Positions 1 through 28,843 of a stretch of 34,802 bases of DNA are shown here, one piece after another. Positions within the stretch are counted from its first letter, which is position 1, and every line of letters starts with the position of its first letter. Where the stretch lies: assembly GCA_001742785.1 (NCBI GenBank), contig MCBF01000001.1:147335-182136 (forward strand). The letters run 5' to 3'. The position numbers were made by a program, and so were the translations under genes. The DNA is from Candidatus Altiarchaeales archaeon IMC4 (GTDB lineage Archaea > Altiarchaeota > Altiarchaeia > IMC4). Below the pieces are notes generated by a model. The model saw only the letters and a program-made list of their open reading frames with translations. It was not told the origin of the DNA and did not search any database.

Positions 1-1357
1 AACATATCTTGAACTTGTAGAAAGTTATCGAGAGAATGGAAAAGTCAAGCACATATTCAAGAAGTATCTCGGAAAAGATATCAATGGAAAACCCATAAGA
101 CGGGTAAAGACAAGCGACATAGGCGTGGAATCAGTAAAGAGATACGGAGACGTCCTATGCGTGGATAAAATAGCACAAGACCTTGGCTTGCACGAATTCC
201 TTGACAAGAACGTCCTGTTGTTGGCATATTCTCACGTTCTGGACGATGTCAGTATGAACAATATGAAGGAGTGGGTGGAGCAGACAGAAATCCCGGAAAT
301 CCTTGAACTGGATACTATCTCAACAAAGAAACTCTATGAGGCATTGGAGAACTTAGATGAAGTAGATTTCGCGCCTCTTGAAGAACGCATATACAAGAAA
401 TTTTCCAAACACGATAAAGGCAAAACAACGGTTGTTGTGGACGTCACGGACACCTATTTCGAGGGTAAGAGGGGCTCTTCATCGAAGAAAAGAAGAGGAA
501 AGGACGGGAAATACAGAAATCTCCTGCAGATATGTCTGGCTGTGACCTTGAAGCATGGCTTTCCGGTCATGCACAGGACATATGGCGGCAACGTGTCGGG
601 TATAAGAATCTTCCAAGACATGACGACAGAGTTAATATCAAGGGGCTTTGATTCGATAATAGTTGACCGAGGGGTGCGCAGCACGGAGAATATAGAAATG
701 ATGCAGGAACTTGAAATGAAGGGCATAATGGGGGTAAAGAAAATACAGAGCATCAAGGAAGGGTTTCTCGATACCCTTGTGGGGGGAGAGATATACTGCA
801 AGGACACACGCATTGTCCTGAAAAACACCACGGTTCATGCAAAAGAATTTGATTACATGGACGGCAAGCTAATCGTGGTTTACAACCCTACACTTGAGGT
901 TCAGCAAAGGGAAAACCATTATGCAAAAGGTGGAGATGATGAAGGGGCGAAATACATCGGTTACTCTCTGATATACCACAACACAGGCATGGATGTGGCC
1001 GAGGTAGTGAGACAATACTTTGAAAAAGACATTGTGGAGCGTGCATTCAAACAGATAAAGGGTGCATTATCCTTGAGACCGATTAGGATGTGGCTGAAAA
1101 GCCATGTGAACGGGCATGTAAGAGTATGTTACCTGTCATATGCCGTGCTCAGCATGCTTGCGTATCAGATCGGGGATATTGAGTTAAGCCCGCAAGATGC
1201 ACTGAAGAAACTCAAGACGAGTTATAGGGTTCATCTTAAAGACAACGAGGGCGACTTTTCATGGTCGAGGGTGGTGAATCTTGAGAAGATTCAAGACGAT
1301 ATTCTCGAAAAGGTTGGTGTAGTGGGGGAAAAAGTAGGGAAAAGTTTGTTATTGTAA
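1..1357 (+). mobile_element. Right-hand part of an IS4-superfamily (IS1634-like) insertion sequence. The left end lies outside the window and the right terminus is not mapped.
   Basis: Contains a DDE transposase ORF that runs open to the window edge. No terminal inverted repeat can be defined because the other end is missing. Confidence 0.55.
2..1357 (+). CDS. DDE transposase, IS4 superfamily / IS1634-like (5' partial)
   Basis: The frame of the 125..1357 ORF stays open back to nt 2 (TYLELVESYRENGKVKHIFKKYLGK..., a typical IS1634 N-terminal motif). Also present: VVVDVTDTYFEG (first D), IIVDRG (second D), and YFEKDIVERAFKQIK, which fits the Y(2)R/K(3)E(6)K signature. Confidence 0.75.
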   Translation, partial: TYLELVESYRENGKVKHIFKKYLGKDINGKPIRRVKTSDIGVESVKRYGDVLCVDKIAQDLGLHEFLDKNVLLLAYSHVLDDVSMNNMKEWVEQTEIPEILELDTISTKKLYEALENLDEVDFAPLEERIYKKFSKHDKGKTTVVVDVTDTYFEGKRGSSSKKRRGKDGKYRNLLQICLAVTLKHGFPVMHRTYGGNVSGIRIFQDMTTELISRGFDSIIVDRGVRSTENIEMMQELEMKGIMGVKKIQSIKEGFLDTLVGGEIYCKDTRIVLKNTTVHAKEFDYMDGKLIVVYNPTLEVQQRENHYAKGGDDEGAKYIGYSLIYHNTGMDVAEVVRQYFEKDIVERAFKQIKGALSLRPIRMWLKSHVNGHVRVCYLSYAVLSMLAYQIGDIELSPQDALKKLKTSYRVHLKDNEGDFSWSRVVNLEKIQDDILEKVGVVGEKVGKSLLL

Positions 1358-4772: not shown

Positions 4773-4904
4773 GGCACCTGCCCAGAATTTGACAAAAAGG
4801 CAAATTCCTTTTCTTTTTCATCACACGCGTTTGCGAATTTTCGCAAACGGTGTCCCGAAACACTCTGTGTTTCGCGGAACATTTTTCTTTCCTAAAGAAA
4901 AAGG
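4773..4904 (-). repeat. Hairpin-rich palindromic element, copy A (minus orientation)
   Basis: Read on the minus strand: GGAAAGAAAAA..[GAAACAC aga GTGTTTC] GGGACACC [GTTTGCGA aaat TCGCAAAC] GCGTGTGA TG AAAAAGAAAAGG. On the plus strand there is also the hairpin TTTTTCTTT-cct-AAAGAAAAA (4882-4902) and an extra hairpin GAATTTG...CAAATTC (4785-4807) next to GGCACC. Confidence 0.7.
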
Positions 4905-8460: not shown

Positions 8461-8466
8461 GAATAG

Positions 8467-8589
8467 CCCTTTCTTTTTAAGAAAAAGAGAGGGTTATACT
8501 CGAAATTGCTGTGCAATTTCGGTACACCAAAACACTTTGTGTTTTGCGTGTCATCCCAAAGAAAAACAGGGCGGGTTGCGAAGCAACCC
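8467..8589 (+). repeat. Hairpin-rich palindromic element, copy B
   Basis: CCCTTTCTTTTT-aag-AAAAAGAGAGGG (8467-8493). HP1 GAAATTGC-tgt-GCAATTTC (8502-8520). GGTACACC. HP2 AAAACAC-ttt-GTGTTTT (8529-8545). GCGTGTCA TCCC AAAGAAAAA. HP3 GGGTTGC-gaa-GCAACCC (8573-8589). Confidence 0.8.
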
Positions 8590-8628: not shown

Positions 8629-11600
8629 ATGGCGATAGTAAGGAAAAAGGTCAGGGAGATTGAATTTGCTCTGTTTTCACCAAAGCAGATAAGGGCATTG
8701 TCTGCGGGAAAAATATTCACGCCGGACACTTATGACGATGACGGCTACCCGATAGAGGGCGGCCTTATGGACCCGCATCTCGGGGTAATCGACCCGGGGA
8801 TAAGGTGCCGCACCTGCGGGGGGAGGCTCGGGGAATGCATGGGGCACTTCGGCCACATCGAGCTTACGCGGCCGGTTGTGCACGTCGGCTACGCAAAGGA
8901 GATATACAGCCTCCTGCGTGCAACCTGCAAGGGCTGCGGAAGGCTTCTTGTAACGGAAGATACGCTGCAGGGCTATGACGCGGCGAACCTGAACTCCGAA
9001 AAGTTTAACGAAATACTGGAGAAGGCCGAGAAGGTTTCGGATTCTTCGGGCAGGTGCCCTCACTGCGGGCAGCAGCAGCAGAAAATAAAGTTCGTCAGGC
9101 CGTATTCTTATCACGAGGGGGACGACACGCTTCTTGTGACCGACATACTGGAGCGCTTTGAAAAGATAAGCGAAGAAGACCTGATGTACGTCGGTTTCAA
9201 CACGAGGCCAGAGTGGATGATCATGAGCGCGATACCGGTCCTTCCGATAGTTACAAGGCCGTCGATAACCCTTGAGTCAAGCGACAGGAGCGAGGACGAC
9301 CTCACTCACAAACTCGTCGATATACTCAGGATAAACCAGCGCCTTGAGGAGAACATAAACTCCGGCGCGCCGCAGTTGATAATAGAGGACCTTTGGGACC
9401 TCCTTCAGTATCACGTTGCCACCTACTTTGACAACGGCATAACCGGCATCCCACCCGCAAGGCACCGCTCGGGCAGGCCGCTTAAGACCATAGCGCAAAG
9501 GCTTAAAGGCAAAGAGGGCAGGTTCAGGAACAACCTTTCAGGAAAGCGTGTTAACTTCTCGGCAAGAACTGTCATAAGCCCGGACCCGAACATAAGCATA
9601 AACGAGGTCGGGGTCCCGGAGGTCATAGCCGTCGAGCTCACCGTCCCGGAAGAGGCAAACAAGGATAACATAGATTCCCTGAAAGGGATGGTAAAAAACG
9701 GGCCCGGTAAGTTCCCGGGCGCACACAGCGTCATAAAAGAGGGCAAGCGGCGCAGGATCCTGGAGGAAACGAAGGACGAGGTCGCAGAAACCCTTGCAGT
9801 AGGGGACGTCGTCGAGCGCCACCTTTGCGACGGCGACATTGTCATATTCAACAGGCAGCCATCCTTGCACAGGATGTCGATGATGTGCCACACCGTAAGG
9901 GTTCTGCCGTATTCCACATTCAGGTTGAACACCGCAGTCTGCGCCCCGTATAACGCGGACTTCGACGGCGATGAGATGAACCTGCACGTCCCGCAGTCCG
10001 AGGAAGCCAAGGCCGAGGCGGAAATACTGATGAAGGTGCAGGAGAACATAATCTCCCCGCGGTTCGGTGAGCCCGTGATGGGCGGCCGCCACGACCACGT
10101 AACAGGGATGTACCTTCTTACCAAAGACGGCAGGATTTTAAGCCGCAGGGAAGCGCTCCAGCTGACCAGGAACATCGTGAACCTGCCGAAAAAGGACACG
10201 TACACCGGGAGGGATATATTTAGTGCGCTTCTGCCGAATGACCTGACTATGTCCTTTGAAGGAAAGATGGGCCCGGTGGTTATAGAAAAAGGGCAGGTCA
10301 AGTCCGGCGTTATAGCTGCAAAGGGCATGGCAGGAGAACTACTGAACGAGATATTCCTCAAGTACGGCTCGGACGCGGCAAGGCAGTACATCGACAAATC
10401 CACACGTCTTGCGATAAACTCATTCATGAAGTACGGTTTCTCAACCGGAATAGACGAAAACGACCTGAAAAAAGACGGAATAAAGGAGATCACGGATGTC
10501 CTTGATGCCGCGGAGAAGGAGGTCGACAAGCTGGTCGAACAGCACCACAAGAAAACCATGAAGGTCGTCCCCGGGAAAACATTGGACGAAAGCCTTGAGG
10601 ATTACGCCCTTATGACGCTTGGAAAAGCGAGAATGGACTCCGGAAAGATAGCCGCACGGCGCATCGGCGAGAACAGCGCGGTGATAATGGCAAAAGCGGG
10701 GGCCCGCGGAAGCCTTCTGAACCTTACCCAAATGGTCGGGTCGATCGGGCAGCAGGCGGTCAGGGGCAAGCGTATAAAGCGCGGCTACCACAACAGGACG
10801 CTGTCAAGTTTCAAGAAACACGATGTGAGCGCAAGGGCAAACGGTTTCGTCAGGTCAAGTTTCAAGAAGGGGCAGACCCCGCAGGAATACTTCTTCCACG
10901 CGATGGGCGGGAGGGAAAGCCTTGTGGATACTGCGATAAGGACGGGGCGCAGCGGTTATATGCAAAGGAGGCTCATAAACGCACTTCAGGACCTTAAGGT
11001 ATACCCCGACGAAACGGTTCGCGGGGACGGGAAGATATTGGTGCAATTCAGGTACGGGGAGGACGGAATAGACCCTGCGAAGACCGGATATATCAAAGGC
11101 GGCAGGAAGGATTACGAGAAGGCTAGGGTTGTCCCCGGAGAGGCCGTCGGAACCGTTGCTGCGCAGTCAATAGGTGAACCCGGGACACAGATGACCTTGA
11201 GGACGTTCCACTACGCGGGTGTCGTCGAGTTGAGCGTTCCGCTGGGTCTGCCGCGGCTTATAGAGATAATAGATGCCAAGCGCTCGCCGAGCAACCCGAT
11301 GATGACCATATACCTCGACAAGGAGCACATGCACGATGAAAAGAAGGCTTCCGAGCTTGCAGAAAAACTCGATGAGAAGTTCATGGAGGATGTCTGCGAA
11401 AGCACCGTCGACGCGAACAAAAAAGAGATCATAATAAAAACAAAGGACAAGGCGGCGCAGGAGGCCCTGAAGGAAATCTCCGAGGCAAGGGCGGCCAACA
11501 CGTTCGTCGTATCGGGGGAGTCGCTTCCTGAAATCAAAAGGACGCTTGGAAAGCTTATGAAGAAGAAGGTGTCCGGCGTAAAGGACATAAAAAGGACGTT

Positions 11601-12078
11601 CGTAAGGGAGCTTAACGGGGAGACCGTAATCTACACTGAGGGCTCAAACCTGAAGGCAGTATTAAAGATTAAGGGCGTTGATACCGTGCGGACGACGACA
11701 AATGACCTCTACCAGATATATGAAACGCTCGGCATAGAGGCGGTAAGAAGCGCCGTCATAAACGAGGCATCGAAGGTCCTCAAGGAAGAAAGGCTGGATG
11801 TTGACATAAGGCACATGATGCTTGTCGCAGACCAAATGACGGTTACCGGGGAGCTTCAGGCGGTCGGAAGGCACGGAATAAGCGGCTCGAAGGAGTCGAT
11901 GCTTGCAAGGGCCGCTTTCGAGGAAACCGAAAAGCACATACTCAATGCCGCTGTTACCGGAGAGGTGGACATGCTCGACGGCGTTGCAGAGAACATAATC
12001 ATAGGGCAGTCTGTCCCCGTAGGGACGGGCACCATTGACCTAGGGGTAAAACCCGGCATTATCGGCAAGGGAAAGTAA
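8629..12078 (+). CDS. rpoA: DNA-directed RNA polymerase largest subunit, with A' and A'' (Rpo1N plus Rpo1C) fused in one ORF
   Basis: Start chosen at MAIVRKKVREIEF, because the longer 8506 ORF begins inside a repeat element. The A' part has CRTCGGRLGECMGHFGH and YNADFDGDEMNLH. The A'' part (VVPGEAVGTVAAQSIGEPGTQMTLRTFHYAG...LGLPRLIEIIDAKR) follows in the same frame with no stop. Confidence 0.9.
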   Translation: MAIVRKKVREIEFALFSPKQIRALSAGKIFTPDTYDDDGYPIEGGLMDPHLGVIDPGIRCRTCGGRLGECMGHFGHIELTRPVVHVGYAKEIYSLLRATCKGCGRLLVTEDTLQGYDAANLNSEKFNEILEKAEKVSDSSGRCPHCGQQQQKIKFVRPYSYHEGDDTLLVTDILERFEKISEEDLMYVGFNTRPEWMIMSAIPVLPIVTRPSITLESSDRSEDDLTHKLVDILRINQRLEENINSGAPQLIIEDLWDLLQYHVATYFDNGITGIPPARHRSGRPLKTIAQRLKGKEGRFRNNLSGKRVNFSARTVISPDPNISINEVGVPEVIAVELTVPEEANKDNIDSLKGMVKNGPGKFPGAHSVIKEGKRRRILEETKDEVAETLAVGDVVERHLCDGDIVIFNRQPSLHRMSMMCHTVRVLPYSTFRLNTAVCAPYNADFDGDEMNLHVPQSEEAKAEAEILMKVQENIISPRFGEPVMGGRHDHVTGMYLLTKDGRILSRREALQLTRNIVNLPKKDTYTGRDIFSALLPNDLTMSFEGKMGPVVIEKGQVKSGVIAAKGMAGELLNEIFLKYGSDAARQYIDKSTRLAINSFMKYGFSTGIDENDLKKDGIKEITDVLDAAEKEVDKLVEQHHKKTMKVVPGKTLDESLEDYALMTLGKARMDSGKIAARRIGENSAVIMAKAGARGSLLNLTQMVGSIGQQAVRGKRIKRGYHNRTLSSFKKHDVSARANGFVRSSFKKGQTPQEYFFHAMGGRESLVDTAIRTGRSGYMQRRLINALQDLKVYPDETVRGDGKILVQFRYGEDGIDPAKTGYIKGGRKDYEKARVVPGEAVGTVAAQSIGEPGTQMTLRTFHYAGVVELSVPLGLPRLIEIIDAKRSPSNPMMTIYLDKEHMHDEKKASELAEKLDEKFMEDVCESTVDANKKEIIIKTKDKAAQEALKEISEARAANTFVVSGESLPEIKRTLGKLMKKKVSGVKDIKRTFVRELNGETVIYTEGSNLKAVLKIKGVDTVRTTTNDLYQIYETLGIEAVRSAVINEASKVLKEERLDVDIRHMMLVADQMTVTGELQAVGRHGISGSKESMLARAAFEETEKHILNAAVTGEVDMLDGVAENIIIGQSVPVGTGTIDLGVKPGIIGKGK

Positions 12079-12905: not shown

Positions 12906-13334
12906 ATGGCAAGGGGAGAATTTTCGGGCAAAAAGCTTGAGGACCACCGGCATCAGGCAAGGTGGAAGAAAAGCGACTACTGCAGGAGGGTGCTTGGGCT
13001 GAAGCAAAAGCACGACCCGTTAGAGGGGGCTCCGCAGGCAAGGGCCATTGTGCTTGAGAAGGTCGGCATAGAGGCGAAGCAGCCGAATTCCGCGATAAGA
13101 AAGTGCGTAAAGGTTCAGCTCATGAAGAACGGCAGGCAGGCGACCGCTTTCTGTCCGGGCAATCACGCAATCACTTTCATAGAGGAGCACGACGAGGTAG
13201 TTATAGAGGGCATCGGCGGCCGAAAGGGGCGGTCGATGGGGGACCTTTCTGGCATAAGATACAAAGTAATAATGGTAAATGGCATCTCGCTGAACGAACT
13301 GTGGCACGGACGGAAGGAGAGGGCACAGAGATAA
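12906..13334 (+). CDS. rps12: 30S ribosomal protein S12 (uS12)
   Basis: 142 aa with [28 protein letters not shown]. Confidence 0.95.
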
Positions 13335-13335
13335 A

Positions 13336-13722
13336 ATGACTGACATAATAAACGACACGATTGTGAACCTGAAAAACCATGAGCGCAAGGGGAAATCGCA
13401 GTGCACGATTAAGCCGGTTTCCAAGCTGCTGATTGAGGTTTTAGGGGTATTCCAAAAAGAGGGCTACATCGGCCAGTTTGAGGTGTCTGAGGACAAAACC
13501 GGAGGCAGCGTGCGTGTTAATCTTGTAAAGAGGATAAACGAGTGCGGCATCATCAAGCCGCGCTACTCTGTAAGCCACACTGAATTCGACACCTTGGAGA
13601 AGAGATTCCTGCCGGCGAAGGATTTCGGGACGATCGTTGTAACGACGCCCAAAGGGGTTATGAGCCACAAGGACGCAAAAAAGAAGAACCTCGGCGGCAA
13701 GTTAATAGCATACGTTTACTGA
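13336..13722 (+). CDS. rps8: 30S ribosomal protein S8 (uS8)
   Basis: 128 aa with a C-terminal ...KKKNLGGKLIAYVY. The ATG is 1 nt after the S12 stop. Confidence 0.92.
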   Translation: MTDIINDTIVNLKNHERKGKSQCTIKPVSKLLIEVLGVFQKEGYIGQFEVSEDKTGGSVRVNLVKRINECGIIKPRYSVSHTEFDTLEKRFLPAKDFGTIVVTTPKGVMSHKDAKKKNLGGKLIAYVY

Positions 13723-14268: not shown

Positions 14269-15492
14269 ATGGCTAAATCAAAATCAGACAAGGTTATGGA
14301 AAAGAAGGGGGTCCTGACTGCCAAGAGGGCGAAGGCCGCCGAGGATTCCAAAAAGAAAGGTATCGGGGTGAAAGAGGAAGCCGCCCATGAGGAACCCTCC
14401 GAAGAAAAAGTAAAACCGATAACCGAAAAGAAAAAGGCCAAAAAAACTTCCGAGGAAGCCGCAAAGGCACCAAAGCCCGTGGAAGCCCCTGAAGAAAAGG
14501 TCGTTGAAAGGATAATAAAAACAAGAAAGGAAAAGCCCGTCGAGAAGATAAAATTCTTCGGTGTAAAGAGGAAACTGTCGCAGGGCATTGCCCGCGTTTT
14601 CAAGATCGCGAAGGTTGCAAAGAAAAAGAAGCCGAAGTTCAACCGGCAGGAGCTCCACAGGTACAAGAAGCTCAAGGATGTGTGGAGGACGCCGAGGGGC
14701 ATCGACAGCAAGCTTGCGCGGGACAAGCGCGGCAAGGGCGCAAGGCCTAAAATCGGGTATAAAAACCCGCCGGCGGTCTCGGGGCTTGACCCGTCAGGAT
14801 TTCTGCCAATAACCATAAATAACGTTAAAGAGTTGGCAAAGGTCGACAAATCCGTCAATGCGATAGTAATAGCGGGCAGTGTCGGCAGGAAAAAGCGAAA
14901 CGACATCATAAAGGCCGCAAACGAGAAAAAGATCATCATACTTAACCCCAGAAAGGGCGAGCTTCCCGGGCAGGGCGCAAAAAGGGTGCTGATGGTCATT
15001 GCGCCGAAAAACTTCAGGGACGAGGAGTTGATAACCCCGAAAGAGGTGTTCGAATCCGCGGGTTTTAACGTCATGATAGCAGGGGTCTCAAAAACCAAGG
15101 CGGTCGGTGCGGGCAGCACTGCCGTTATACCGGATGTTGCGATAAAGGATGCAAAAGCCGAGGATTACGATGCTGTCGTTTTTATCGGAGGCCCGGGTGC
15201 AAAGGAGCACCTGTGGGACAACAAGGATGCACATGCCCTTGCAAAGGGCGGCGCAAAGGCAAAGGCGCTTGGCTCGATATGCCTCGCGGGCGTTGTGCTT
15301 GCCAGAAGCGGCGTGCTGAAAGGCAGGGAAGCGACGGTGTTCGAATCGGAGGAAACAATAAAGGAGTTTGAGTCGGCCGGGGCAGAGTACGTCAAAAAGC
15401 CGGTGGTCGTTTCGGGTAACATCATAACCGCAAACGGGCCTGAAGCGGCAAAGGCGTTCGGGGCAAAAATCGTCGATATCGTGAACAAATAA
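14269..15492 (+). CDS. rpl32e: Ribosomal protein L32e with a K/E/A-rich N-terminal extension, fused in frame to a C-terminal DJ-1/PfpI-family domain
   Basis: 407-aa uninterrupted ORF. The L32e core is KKKKPKFNRQELHRYKKLKDVWRTPRGIDSKLARDKRGKGARPKIGYKNP...GRKKRNDIIKAANEKKIIILNP. From about nt 14980 it reads KRVLMVIAPKNFRDEEL...DAVVFIGGPGA...LGSICLAGVVLARSGVLKGREAT...VVVSGNIITANGPEAA. This aligns by eye to PH1704/PfpI-like proteins, with the nucleophile-elbow Cys at 15280-15282. Confidence 0.8.
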   Translation: MAKSKSDKVMEKKGVLTAKRAKAAEDSKKKGIGVKEEAAHEEPSEEKVKPITEKKKAKKTSEEAAKAPKPVEAPEEKVVERIIKTRKEKPVEKIKFFGVKRKLSQGIARVFKIAKVAKKKKPKFNRQELHRYKKLKDVWRTPRGIDSKLARDKRGKGARPKIGYKNPPAVSGLDPSGFLPITINNVKELAKVDKSVNAIVIAGSVGRKKRNDIIKAANEKKIIILNPRKGELPGQGAKRVLMVIAPKNFRDEELITPKEVFESAGFNVMIAGVSKTKAVGAGSTAVIPDVAIKDAKAEDYDAVVFIGGPGAKEHLWDNKDAHALAKGGAKAKALGSICLAGVVLARSGVLKGREATVFESEETIKEFESAGAEYVKKPVVVSGNIITANGPEAAKAFGAKIVDIVNK

Positions 15493-15493
15493 A

Positions 15494-15931
15494 ATGAACC
15501 TCAGAAACCAAAGAAGGATGGCTGCCAAGGTATTGAATGTCGGGGAGAATAAGGTAAAGATCAGCCCTGATTCCCTTGATGAGGTTTCGCAGGCGATAAC
15601 CCGCGACGACATAAGGCACTTCATAAACAACGGTATAATCACTGCAGCCCCTGAAAAGGGTAACAGCAAGGCAAGGCACGCACTTTACGCTGAACAAAAA
15701 AAGAAGGGCAGGCACCGCGGACACGGAAGCCGCACCGGCTCGAAAAAGGCAAGGACCCAGGGGAAGCGCTCATGGATCCAGAAGGTAAGGGCGCTCAGGG
15801 ACGAACTCAAAAACATGAAGAACTCCAAGACATTGGGGAAGATTTCATATCGCAAGCTTTACAGGCAGGTCGCAGGCAACATGTTCCACTCCAGAAGGCA
15901 CCTGCGCGAACATATAGAGAGGCAAAAATAG
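15494..15931 (+). CDS. rpl19e: 50S ribosomal protein L19e
   Basis: 145 aa (MNLRNQRRMAAKVLNVGENKVKI...GRHRGHGSRTGSKKAR). Confidence 0.93.
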   Translation: MNLRNQRRMAAKVLNVGENKVKISPDSLDEVSQAITRDDIRHFINNGIITAAPEKGNSKARHALYAEQKKKGRHRGHGSRTGSKKARTQGKRSWIQKVRALRDELKNMKNSKTLGKISYRKLYRQVAGNMFHSRRHLREHIERQK

Positions 15932-15957
15932 GGACATCAAGATTCAATAGAATGCTC

Positions 15958-16027
15958 GAAATTGCAGAGCAATTTCGGCACACCGAATCACAAAGTGATT
16001 CGCGTGTCTCGTGGCTTTGAGAGTCAC
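15958..16027 (+). repeat. Hairpin-rich palindromic element, copy C
   Basis: HP1 GAAATTGC-aga-GCAATTTC (15958-15976). GGCACACC. HP2 GAATCAC-aaa-GTGATTC (15985-16001). GCGTGTC. HP3 GTGGCT-ttgag-AGTCAC (16011-16027). Confidence 0.8.
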
Positions 16028-16036
16028 AATTTCAAA

Positions 16037-16582
16037 ATGGCAACCGGCGCTACATACGTGGTCCAGTACAGGCGGAAAAGAAGTCAGGAAACGGATTACA
16101 GAGACAGGCTTGACCTTCTTAAATCCGGAAAGCCAAGGCTGGTTATAAGGCCGTCAAACAAGCACATAGTCGTTCAGGTCATTGGTTACAAGCCGAACGG
16201 CGACATGGTGCTCGCGTCTGCAAAATCGTCAGACCTCGTCGGGTTCGGATGGAAATACGCAAAATCGAATATACCTGCCGCGTACCTCACGGGGCTCTTG
16301 TGCGGAAAGCGCGCAACCGATGCGAAGGTGAAGGACGCTGTCATGGACATAGGGCTTTGCCGCTCGGTAAAGGGGTCAAGAATATACGCCGCGCTGAAGG
16401 GCGTGGTTGATTCGGGGCTTGAGGTTGCGCACGACGAGAAGATATTCCCGGACGAGTCCAGGATATCCGGGCAGCACACAAAGGCGGCAAAAGAGATGTC
16501 TGCAAACGCAAAGGGGGTCGCTGATGCGATAAAAAATAAAGTAGCGCCCAAAACAATAAAAGAGGTAAAACCCAAAAAATAA
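16037..16582 (+). CDS. rpl18: 50S ribosomal protein L18 (uL18 / L5e)
   Basis: MATGATYVVQYRRKRSQETDYRDRLDLLKSGKPRLVIRPSNKHIVVQV... The ORF-track start at 15962 lies inside a repeat element, so ATG 16037 is preferred. Confidence 0.9.
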   Translation: MATGATYVVQYRRKRSQETDYRDRLDLLKSGKPRLVIRPSNKHIVVQVIGYKPNGDMVLASAKSSDLVGFGWKYAKSNIPAAYLTGLLCGKRATDAKVKDAVMDIGLCRSVKGSRIYAALKGVVDSGLEVAHDEKIFPDESRISGQHTKAAKEMSANAKGVADAIKNKVAPKTIKEVKPKK

Positions 16583-17351: not shown

Positions 17352-18003
17352 ACCGGAAAAGGTTTCGGAAAAGATTCTGACGAAAGCCGGGCCGAAAGCG
17401 GCGAGCGCGCCAAAAAAAGCAGTTGTTGCGGTTGCGCCCAAAGTAGAGTCTGTTGCAAAGGTTTCGAGGCAGAATGCGGACAAGCAAAATCGCACAGCGA
17501 TTTTGGTGTCCAAAAACTCAAAGAGTTTTGCGGACAAGCGAATCGCAATAATCCGCGTCAGGGGCAGCGTCCATCTTAGAAGCGGTATAGCCGACGCCAT
17601 GAAAATGCTGAACCTGAACCGCGTCAACCACTGCGTCGTGGTGGACAACCGCCCGCAGTACATGGGTATGATAAACAAGGCCAAGGACTACATAACCTTC
17701 GGCGAGATAAACGAGGAAACCGTGGCATCGCTTATTGCAAAGCGCGGCAGGCTCCCTGGAAACGTAAGGCTCGATGACGCTTACGTGAAAAATGCCACCG
17801 GCAAAGACATCGCAGGTTTTGCAGGCGCGTTCATGAAATTCGAAAAAGAGCTGAAAGACATCCCGGACATAAGCCCTGTTTTCCGCCTCAGGCCGCCGAA
17901 AAAGGGCCACGCAAGGGGCGGCATCAAGAAGCCGTGCTCTGTCGGTGGCGCTCTTGGGAACCGAAAAGAGAAGATAAACGACCTTCTGGCAAAGATGATA
18001 TAA
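17323..18003 (+). CDS. rpl30: 50S ribosomal protein L30 (uL30 / L7e-like), with an N-terminal K/A/P-rich extension of about 70 aa
   Basis: The conserved core starts at IAIIRVRGSVHLRSGIADAMKMLNLNRVNHCVVVDNRPQYMGMINKAKDYITFGE. The only ATG is 17323, which overlaps S5 by 29 nt. Starting at the alternative GTG 17506 would remove the extension. Confidence 0.85.
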   Translation: MIQKNKPQGKPEKVSEKILTKAGPKAASAPKKAVVAVAPKVESVAKVSRQNADKQNRTAILVSKNSKSFADKRIAIIRVRGSVHLRSGIADAMKMLNLNRVNHCVVVDNRPQYMGMINKAKDYITFGEINEETVASLIAKRGRLPGNVRLDDAYVKNATGKDIAGFAGAFMKFEKELKDIPDISPVFRLRPPKKGHARGGIKKPCSVGGALGNRKEKINDLLAKMI

Positions 18004-28683: not shown

Positions 28684-28843
28684 CCCTTTTCTTTCCCGCG
28701 TAATTGCGGCGGCAATTACGGGGCACCATAATCGTGTTCGATTATGCGTGTCCAAAAGAAAAGTGCTATCCTCGTGAATCGGAGATTCACGGGACACCAT
28801 TTTCGATAAAATCGAAAATGCTTGTCATCCCAAAAGAAAAGGG
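28684..28843 (+). repeat. Hairpin-rich palindromic element, tandem double copy D1+D2 bounded by 11-bp inverted termini
   Basis: Termini: CCCTTTTCTTT (28684-28694) / AAAGAAAAGGG (28833-28843). D1: [CGTAATTGC ggcg GCAATTACG] GGGCACC [ATAATCG tgtt CGATTAT] GCGTGTCC AAAAGAAAAG. D2: [CGTGAATC gga GATTCACG] GGACACC [ATTTTCGAT aaa ATCGAAAAT] GCTTGTCA TCCC AAAAGAAAAGGG. Confidence 0.8.

Follow-up and report, generated by a model that had tools for sequence, protein, structure and literature searches.

The window analysed in this work, a stretch of 34,802 nucleotides (nt) from contig MCBF01000001.1 of Candidatus Altiarchaeales archaeon IMC4, carries a large block of genes for RNA polymerase subunits and ribosomal proteins. 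Based on Pfam assignments, the gene order is rpoB'', rpoB', a fused rpoA, L30e, a NusA-like KH protein, S12, S8, L6, an L32e::DJ-1 fusion, L19e, L18, S5 and L30. The gap between the L19e stop codon (TAG, 15929-15931) and the L18 start at 16037 is 105 nt long (15932-16036). All other junctions from S12 to L30, described as short in the first-pass annotation of the window, were confirmed to be so, with 1 nt between S12 and S8, 2 nt between S8 and L6, 13 nt between L6 and L32e, 1 nt at both the L32e/L19e and L18/S5 junctions and an overlap of S5 with L30. The genes of the operon are not preceded by Shine-Dalgarno sequences; some of their starts are coupled to the stop of the gene before (TAAA-ATG), and the others lie behind an A-rich unstructured sequence (rpoA, S12 and L30e). 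The L18 start context, AATTTCAAA-ATG, resembles the latter group. The 105-nt spacer contains a member of a genome-wide family of small palindromic repeats, called copy C in the following.

The spacer is largely made of hairpins joined by short linkers (Table 1). The hairpins HP1, HP2 and HP3, the last with one G-U pair, the GGCACACC and GCGTGTC motifs and the length of the spacer had been reported in the first-pass annotation and were read from the sequence with the same result. The arms of HP1 (CGAAATTGC, 15957-15965, and GCAATTTCG, 15969-15977) are extended by GC/GC pairing around a bulged U. HP2 is formed by GAATCAC (15985-15991) and GTGATTC (15995-16001), and the flanking C and G could give an eighth pair. 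For HP3 the arms are GTGGCT (16011-16016) and AGTCAC (16022-16027), or GTGGCT(T)/(G)AGTCAC when written with the adjoining bases. In the minimum-free-energy fold of the RNA, GGGACAU of the GGGACATC region (15931-15938) pairs with GUGUCUC (16004-16010) and closes a multi-branch structure around three hairpins, with HP3 following it. The predicted energy of the 15925-16045 segment was -37.7 kcal/mol in comparison with -22.7 +/- 2.9 kcal/mol for shuffled sequences (z = -5.19), and none of 200 shuffles was as stable; for the DNA fold of the spacer region a z of -4.55 was obtained. The weak, decayed hairpin upstream of HP1 may be what is left of the T2-type hairpin of an adjacent half unit, and HP3 is probably the initial half of another unit that is truncated.

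A search of the whole window against Rfam gave no match above the gathering thresholds, and at E <= 10 the spacer gave two chance-level matches only, none of them to 5S rRNA or to leaders. No tRNA was found in the spacer by ARAGORN, and a tRNA-like element was rejected since no cloverleaf was obtained. A promoter and terminator scan of the spacer, of a bacterial type with little relevance to archaea, also returned nothing. Runs of five or more T do not occur in the spacer, and an A/T-rich octamer or TATA-like box at a suitable distance from the L18 ATG is also missing. As a separate observation, L19e and L18 share a reading frame, and the spacer consists of 35 sense codons without a stop, so that the single TAG lies between the two proteins; this is probably a coincidence and no function is ascribed to it.

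The unit of the family is about 54-57 nt long and consists of a hairpin (T1), the linker GG(N)ACACC, a second hairpin (T2) and the linker GCKTGT. The linkers are conserved and the stems are variable, yet perfectly paired. A fuller consensus reads (GRTGTCC), T1 (CGWRAAYN..., 8-10 bp), (N)GGACACC, T2 (RWWWSNN..., 6-10 bp), GCKTGT(CC). The linkers GG(N)ACACC and GCKTGT(CC) are mutually complementary and therefore GGACAC and GTGTCC 6-mers alternate in arrays, which reach at least seven hairpins. T1 and T2 types are freely combined. A CRISPR-like array was considered and rejected, since the conserved 6-mers alternate in orientation and the would-be spacers are palindromic.

A scan of the 1.39-Mb genome, available as a scaffold with about 170 N gaps, for NCACC followed by a hairpin and GC[GTA]TG gave 135 sites, about 125 of which were convincing units, distributed on both strands. 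The pattern GGACACC-N14-28-GCKTGT occurred 74 times, whereas its reversed control occurred once, and 69 of the 74 intervals so defined held a perfect stem, flush with the anchors and 6 bp or longer, in comparison with 0.3% of shuffled intervals. Among these anchor-defined sites 42 distinct stem sequences were present, with several pair types per tabulated stem position. No clear excess of solo linker footprints (GCKTGTCC outside units) was noticed. A covariance model, R1, was built from a gap-free seed of nine other units with copy C excluded. It returned at least 137 matches in the genome at E <= 0.01, a lower bound given that 150 of 503 candidates were scored. Copy C was recognised by R1 at 15951-16008 of the plus strand with 34.6 bits (E = 5.8e-9), the minus strand scoring 10.6 bits. 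In copy C a perfect T2 stands flush between GGCACACC and GCGTGTC, T1 lies directly 5' of the linker, and the T1 sequence CGAAATTGC/AGA/GCAATTTCG represents the commonest T1 class of the genome. We therefore read the spacer, with good confidence, as one complete unit with decayed half units on either side, belonging to a small non-autonomous palindromic repeat that has been massively expanded in this species.

The family is nearly confined to this species. The linker pattern occurred 0-4 times, at the level of the control, in 40 genomes of the same order, and a family-specific 25-base pattern had no matches in 185,579 species genomes. In 60 other genomes of the phylum R1 gave weak matches in three only, one or two in each. 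Two of these matches, from two other genomes of the class, resemble genuine single units when inspected (one example reads TCC-TCGGAAACC..GGTTTCCGG-GACAC-AGAAACGAC..GTCGTTTCT-CGTGT) and may be relics or transfers of the same type of element.

The comparison of L19e-L18 junctions from related genomes, proposed in the first-pass annotation, included 20 genomes of the same order, two matches from a genome collection and two metagenome contigs. In 23 related junctions the gap ranged from -17 to +63 nt and was mostly 1-4 nt, typically TAA-A-ATG, and none of them showed the hairpin architecture of the copy C spacer. The single 63-nt spacer of a relative is an AT-rich direct repeat devoid of hairpins. 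Among the compared genomes the 105-nt spacer was confined to the same species: contig JAEMOK010000138.1 (GCA_017973835.1), 99.7% identical over 18 kb, has a base-for-base identical L19e-L18 spacer. Near-identical contigs were present in four NCBI assemblies and in ENA ERZ909603 (run ERR628383, PRJEB6121, labelled 'groundwater metagenome'). This project is probably the study of Altiarchaeum in a sulfidic spring, and the species would then probably be Ca. Altiarchaeum hamiconexum or a very close relative. L18 homologues of about 55% identity carry the names Candidatus Altiarchaeales or Altiarchaeota, and metagenome and genome-collection scans for close L18 relatives gave 44-48% identity at best. 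The suggestion of the first-pass annotation that the element is an insertion agrees with these data: the two genes abut, overlap or lie close together in relatives, and the inserted sequence belongs to a family dispersed throughout the genome.

Units of the family were also found within genes, including decayed mobile ones. A degenerate IS200-type tnpA (genome C1:49980-50760) is interrupted at four places when set against the intact gene, by inserts of 110, 54, 54 (net) and 57 nt, with boundaries at ...T/CC-T1...GCKTGT/... (slashes marking the ends of the insert). The last three preserve the open frame, and in three of the insertions no target duplication longer than 1 nt was present. About ten IS200-type tnpA copies occur in the genome, a single one of them intact (genome 20639-21050) and others riddled with repeat units. 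IS630-like genes also contain a unit. The insertion sequence (IS) families represented are IS200-, IS1634-, IS1595- and IS630-like, and at the small number of IS loci inspected none of the repeat copies was seen. The IS1634-like family has eight members (one at window 125-1357), the IS1595-like seven and the IS630-like three. A bulge-helix-bulge intron was rejected, because the X/T2/X' helix has a 1x2 internal loop and not two 3-nt bulges separated by 4 bp. Splicing was also disfavoured, with three of the four tnpA insertions and all verified genic copies being multiples of three, which fits read-through.

In-frame copies were identified in conserved genes as well. HMG-CoA reductase has about 19 additional residues relative to 6hr7 and SepRS 34 additional residues relative to 2du7, each due to an in-frame copy, and other long open reading frames (ORFs) are crossed by units in both orientations. 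Judging from the nucleotide sequence, the frames stay open across the insertions in three conserved genes, HMG-CoA reductase, SepRS and rpl30. The 54-nt unit in rpl30 (~17474-17528) is absent from JAEMOK010000138.1, and L30 has 226 residues in the filled and 208 in the empty allele; the low-complexity extension of L30 is thus partly encoded by the repeat. The unit of the filled allele is located between 10-nt direct repeats GCGGACAAGC, the complement of the family linker GCTTGTCCGC, and the empty allele reads GCAGAGAAGC at the place of the insertion. Differences between the assemblies are patchy, with twelve within 115 nt of the rpl30 indel, and the two alleles therefore represent distinct haplotypes and not a clean before/after pair. 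As far as can be read from the two sequences, the presence/absence of the unit indicates a recent gain or loss and a family that is mobile now or was so recently. When about 60 kb of sequence from five additional assemblies of the species was searched for further cases, the rpl30 case remained the only one, the other indels being N runs or unrelated. Three other assemblies of the species contain a 72-nt stretch, devoid of hairpins, that this genome lacks at C1:995907, where two ORFs overlap upstream of glmS.

Table 1. Features of the L19e-L18 spacer and other repeat copies (window positions unless marked otherwise)
Feature	Position	Strand	Basis
Ribosomal protein L19e gene	15494..15931	+	Pfam PF01280 and PF25476, translation
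Linker-like GGGACATC (family consensus GGGACACC)	15931..15938	+	sequence; first base is the last base of the L19e stop
Decayed weak hairpin ATTC/AATA/GAAT	15942..15953	+	RNA and DNA folds
One complete repeat unit, copy C: T1, GGCACACC, T2, GCGTGTC	15951..16008	+	covariance model R1, pairwise identities
HP1 (T1), 9-bp stem CGAAATTGC/GCAATTTCG, loop AGA	15954..15979	+	sequence and fold
Conserved linker GGCACACC (family consensus GG(N)ACACC)	15977..15984	+	sequence, genome scan
HP2 (T2), 7-bp stem GAATCAC/GTGATTC, loop AAA	15985..16001	+	sequence, fold
Conserved linker GCGTGTC (family consensus GCKTGT(CC))	16002..16008	+	sequence, genome scan
HP3, GTGGCT-TTGAG-AGTCAC, one G-U pair, T1-like (compare CGTGAATC)	16011..16027	+	sequence, fold
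Unstructured A-rich tail AATTTCAAA immediately 5' of the L18 ATG	16028..16036	+	start-context comparison
Ribosomal protein L18 gene	16037..16582	+	Pfam PF17144 and PF00861, translation
Sister copy B, rpoB'/rpoA spacer	8495..8552	+	R1, 28.7 bits
Family copy, divergent intergenic region upstream of the rpoB operon	4822..4880	-	R1, 76.4 bits
Unit in frame in the N-terminal tail of rpl30	17474..17536	-	R1, 32.7 bits
Two tandem units between the KH-domain gene and the hyp genes	28693..28826	+	R1, 37.1 and 55 bits
L14/L24 copy	genome C1:1027829-1027880 (unit at 1,027,856)	genome minus strand, sense to genes	
AATAGCCCTTTTCTTTT/AAAAGAAAAGGG motif sites	8464-8480 and 8556-8570; 28684-28694 and 28833-28843; genome ~1027900		
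Single look-alike units, two other genomes of the class	L072 1501-1558 (genome G002 C57:3237-3294); L074 1494-1554 (genome G043 C20)		

Taken together, the L19e-L18 spacer is most likely a tolerated selfish insertion and not a control element built for L18. The idea of a deliberately placed RNA structure, also put forward in the first-pass annotation, is not supported: 137 or more instances of the module exist in the genome, on either strand, in arrays, in transposase pseudogenes and in frame in genes of unrelated enzymes, and it is absent from the L19e-L18 junction of all relatives compared. Among intergenic copies flanked by genes of the same direction neither strand is favoured, which argues against a general role at the RNA level. 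The units might move in the form of folded DNA single strands, or recombine at cores of the GCKTGTCC type, with an enzyme acting in trans, and would settle in spacers and, when the frame stays open, within genes. L18 is presumed to be still co-transcribed with L19e, because the spacer has neither a T-run terminator nor a TATA-like box, and the mRNA would then carry three to four stable hairpins (about -38 kcal/mol). The insertion would have replaced an ancestral stop/start coupling of L19e and L18 by independent initiation on the A-rich tail AAUUUCAAA-AUG, and changes that it might cause in the stability of the mRNA or in the yield of L18 would be by-products rather than designed control.

Several observations weigh against a tolerated selfish insertion. 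No transposase could be linked to the family, the nearest family copy of the genome scan lies more than 5 kb from the sole intact Y1 gene (genome 20.6 kb, Y1_Tnp 124 bits), and no TnpB was found. Other Y1 fragments are interrupted by repeats and not flanked by them. Copy C is the same in both assemblies covering it and hence fixed, not polymorphic. The stems of the family are hardly ever decayed and close copies differ by fully compensated pairs, so that selection on RNA is also possible. Finally, the copies at the rpoB'/rpoA (copy B), L19e/L18 and L14/L24 junctions are mutual nearest neighbours (81-88% identity) and are all sense-oriented, which random insertion does not predict. Copies B and C, compared as 57-nt units (8496-8552 and 15952-16008), are 81% identical, with compensated differences in HP2; the identity of their HP1 stems had been recognised in the first-pass annotation. 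Among about 120 units, the nearest to copy C is the L14/L24 unit with 88% identity, and the same unit is the nearest relative of copy B (86%).

The fixation of copy C, the intact stems and the kinship of the three copies could be taken as signs of a domesticated RNA module, a subfamily (ATRC-TCGAAATTGC...GG-YACACC) co-opted in the RNA polymerase and ribosomal protein operons to stabilise the mRNA, to provide a site for its processing or to uncouple translation and so set the relative yields of neighbouring cistrons, here L19e and L18. The three sense-oriented copies are located at junctions which are tight in relatives, the RNA fold is very stable, and hairpins of other repeats, those of repetitive extragenic palindromic (REP) sequences and of MITEs (transposable elements of the miniature inverted-repeat type), alter the stability of operon mRNA (PMC3733652; PMC10969869). 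We nevertheless regard domestication as unlikely. The loops and most unpaired bases vary among the three copies, the next-nearest units adjoin genes of no related function (one for a peptidase, aIF2-beta with a secreted protein after it, IS fragments), the same operon also holds reverse-oriented and in-gene copies, and there is no conservation beyond the species. The simplest account of the three sister copies is one source copy with local hopping, because B and C lie 7.4 kb apart and the ribosomal protein cluster is rearranged. A broader picture, in which an ultra-small archaeal mobile element adds units of about 54 nt singly at GCKTGTCC-like cores by way of folded single strands and an enzyme, giving rise to alternating arrays and to in-frame peptides in essential genes, and in which the subfamily at rpoB'/rpoA, L19e/L18 and L14/L24 was domesticated to uncouple or tune cistrons, is likewise put forward as a speculation with a small chance of being correct.

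An internal promoter or terminator brought in by the element, dividing the operon at L19e/L18 into two transcription units, is highly improbable. The copies at rpoB'/rpoA, at L14/L24 and between the KH-domain gene and the hyp genes do sit between T-rich CCCTTTTCTTTT motifs and TATA-like boxes, but the T-run/A-run palindromes of these sites are missing around copy C, which also lacks the T run of at least five and the suitably spaced A/T-rich octamer. An autoregulatory leader was suggested in the first-pass annotation. In such a leader the RNA of the spacer would resemble a site in rRNA, to which L18 or a different ribosomal protein would bind and thereby repress its own translation. This reading may draw on the structured RNA ending 9 nt 5' of the L18 start (HP3, 16011-16027), but it is largely refuted already by the distribution of the element and has next to no probability left, with the spacer absent from every related genome examined, the module repeated in unrelated contexts, the HP1 and HP2 sequences interchangeable across the family and no likeness to 5S rRNA or to any leader in Rfam.

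At several sites behind stop codons, repeat units stand between a recurrent intergenic motif, AATAGCCCTTTTCTTTT, and the inverse of it, AAAAGAAAAGGG (Table 1), and the L14/L24 copy is flanked by CCCTTTTCTTTT and AAAAGAAAAGG motifs, unlike copy C. The recurrent motif and its inverse may represent oligo-T terminators acting in both directions, or else the termini of some larger composite element.

By analogy, the closest known systems appear to be the Rickettsia palindromic elements and the REP/REPIN repeats, the former being the more similar. Rickettsia palindromic elements are palindromic sequences that insert in frame in genes (PMC10969869). Like the family described here, they are short and lineage-restricted and are found both between genes and in frame in unrelated, even essential genes, to whose products they add a peptide (PMC10969869). 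They differ in being bacterial, about 100-150 bp long and conserved in sequence within a family, whereas the archaeal units have about 54 nt, conserved 7-8-nt linkers only, free stems and long alternating arrays. No sequence relation to them is claimed; the likeness is an analogy, and host domain, unit size and consensus set the two apart. Palindromic repeats inside protein-coding genes of Methanocaldococcus jannaschii were reportedly described by Suyama, Lathe and Bork in 2005; they would be an archaeal precedent and are mentioned here as a lead only.

The REP, REPIN and BIME sequences share with the family hairpins of about 20 nt in high copy number, paired or alternating arrays and a probable handling as single strands (PMC3733652; PMC3116915). 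They also insert without target duplication (PMC3733652), and the three mapped insertions had none longer than 1 nt. In REP/REPIN sequences it is the palindrome itself that is conserved, and here it is the linkers. Looking for the hallmarks of a REP/RAYT system, we found no GTAG tag and no RAYT gene flanked by repeats, and the units are not confined to extragenic DNA. The RAYT/REPtron idea was accordingly rejected, all Y1 genes being of the IS200 type and unflanked by repeats, with TnpB lacking.

In many copies TGTC is present within the GTGTCC beside T1; copy C has GCT there. A superfamily of CGTC/TGTC-tagged REPs was defined by Di Nocera et al. (2013), with stems of 8-9 bp that have A/T pairs close to their base, loops of 4-5 nt, a C/TGTC tag next to the stem and no dedicated transposase (PMC3733652). 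The superfamily includes RPE-4 and RPE-6 and is reported in bacteria only (PMC3733652). The family found here may resemble it, in that the GTGTCC preceding T1 contains TGTC and the stems have A/T at positions 2-4. No counterpart of the two-hairpin unit with GGACACC is described there. Transcribed MITEs (Correia, ERIC and RUP) are also small and non-autonomous, lie between co-transcribed genes and can change mRNA stability or processing (PMC10969869), but they own terminal inverted repeats, target-site duplications and cognate DDE transposases, and in the present family no clear terminal inverted repeats or fixed target duplication are seen. A MITE census that gives no anatomy reports more MITEs per Mb, 146, for Ca. 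Altiarchaeum hamiconexum than for any other archaeon (PMC11602168). The present family stands out by its tiny unit of two hairpins, by linkers that are conserved while the stems are hypervariable and intact, and by its archaeal host.

The 54-nt palindromic unit occurs in at least 137 copies in an uncultivated subsurface archaeon with a small genome, its most conserved operons included, and represents an archaeal counterpart of the Rickettsia phenomenon. Conserved linkers together with hypervariable, never-decayed stems imply either strong selection for the hairpin during mobility or a templated self-correction of the palindrome. At L19e/L18 a tightly coupled gene pair would have become two cistrons across a stable structure, which makes the locus a natural experiment on Shine-Dalgarno-less internal initiation in archaea. 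Copy C itself is most likely ordinary tolerated selfish DNA.

The repeats also affect gene annotation. The TTG-started N-terminal extensions pointed out in the first-pass annotation, MLCNFGTPKH at 8506 and MQSNFGTPNH at 15962, are present, and the extensions of rpoA and L18, like the spacer, are repeat DNA lying outside those genes. Within genes, the repeat adds 18-34 residues to the products, as in rpl30, HMG-CoA reductase and SepRS among others.

Some further features of the window and genome were recorded. L32e is fused in frame to a DJ-1/PfpI domain (PF01655 and PF01965, window 14269-15492), and the fusion is called as a single 407-residue gene in GCA_017973835.1 too. The rpoA gene is one fused gene of 1149 residues (window 8629-12078), while rpoB is split. 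S8 starts 1 nt after S12 (12906-13722), so that two canonical operons are joined, and S17-L14-L24-S4e are located elsewhere in the scaffold. A multi-copy ORF family of 12 copies of about 337 residues (C1:456396-457406 and 11 paralogues) is outnumbered only by giant repetitive proteins, which have 14 members.

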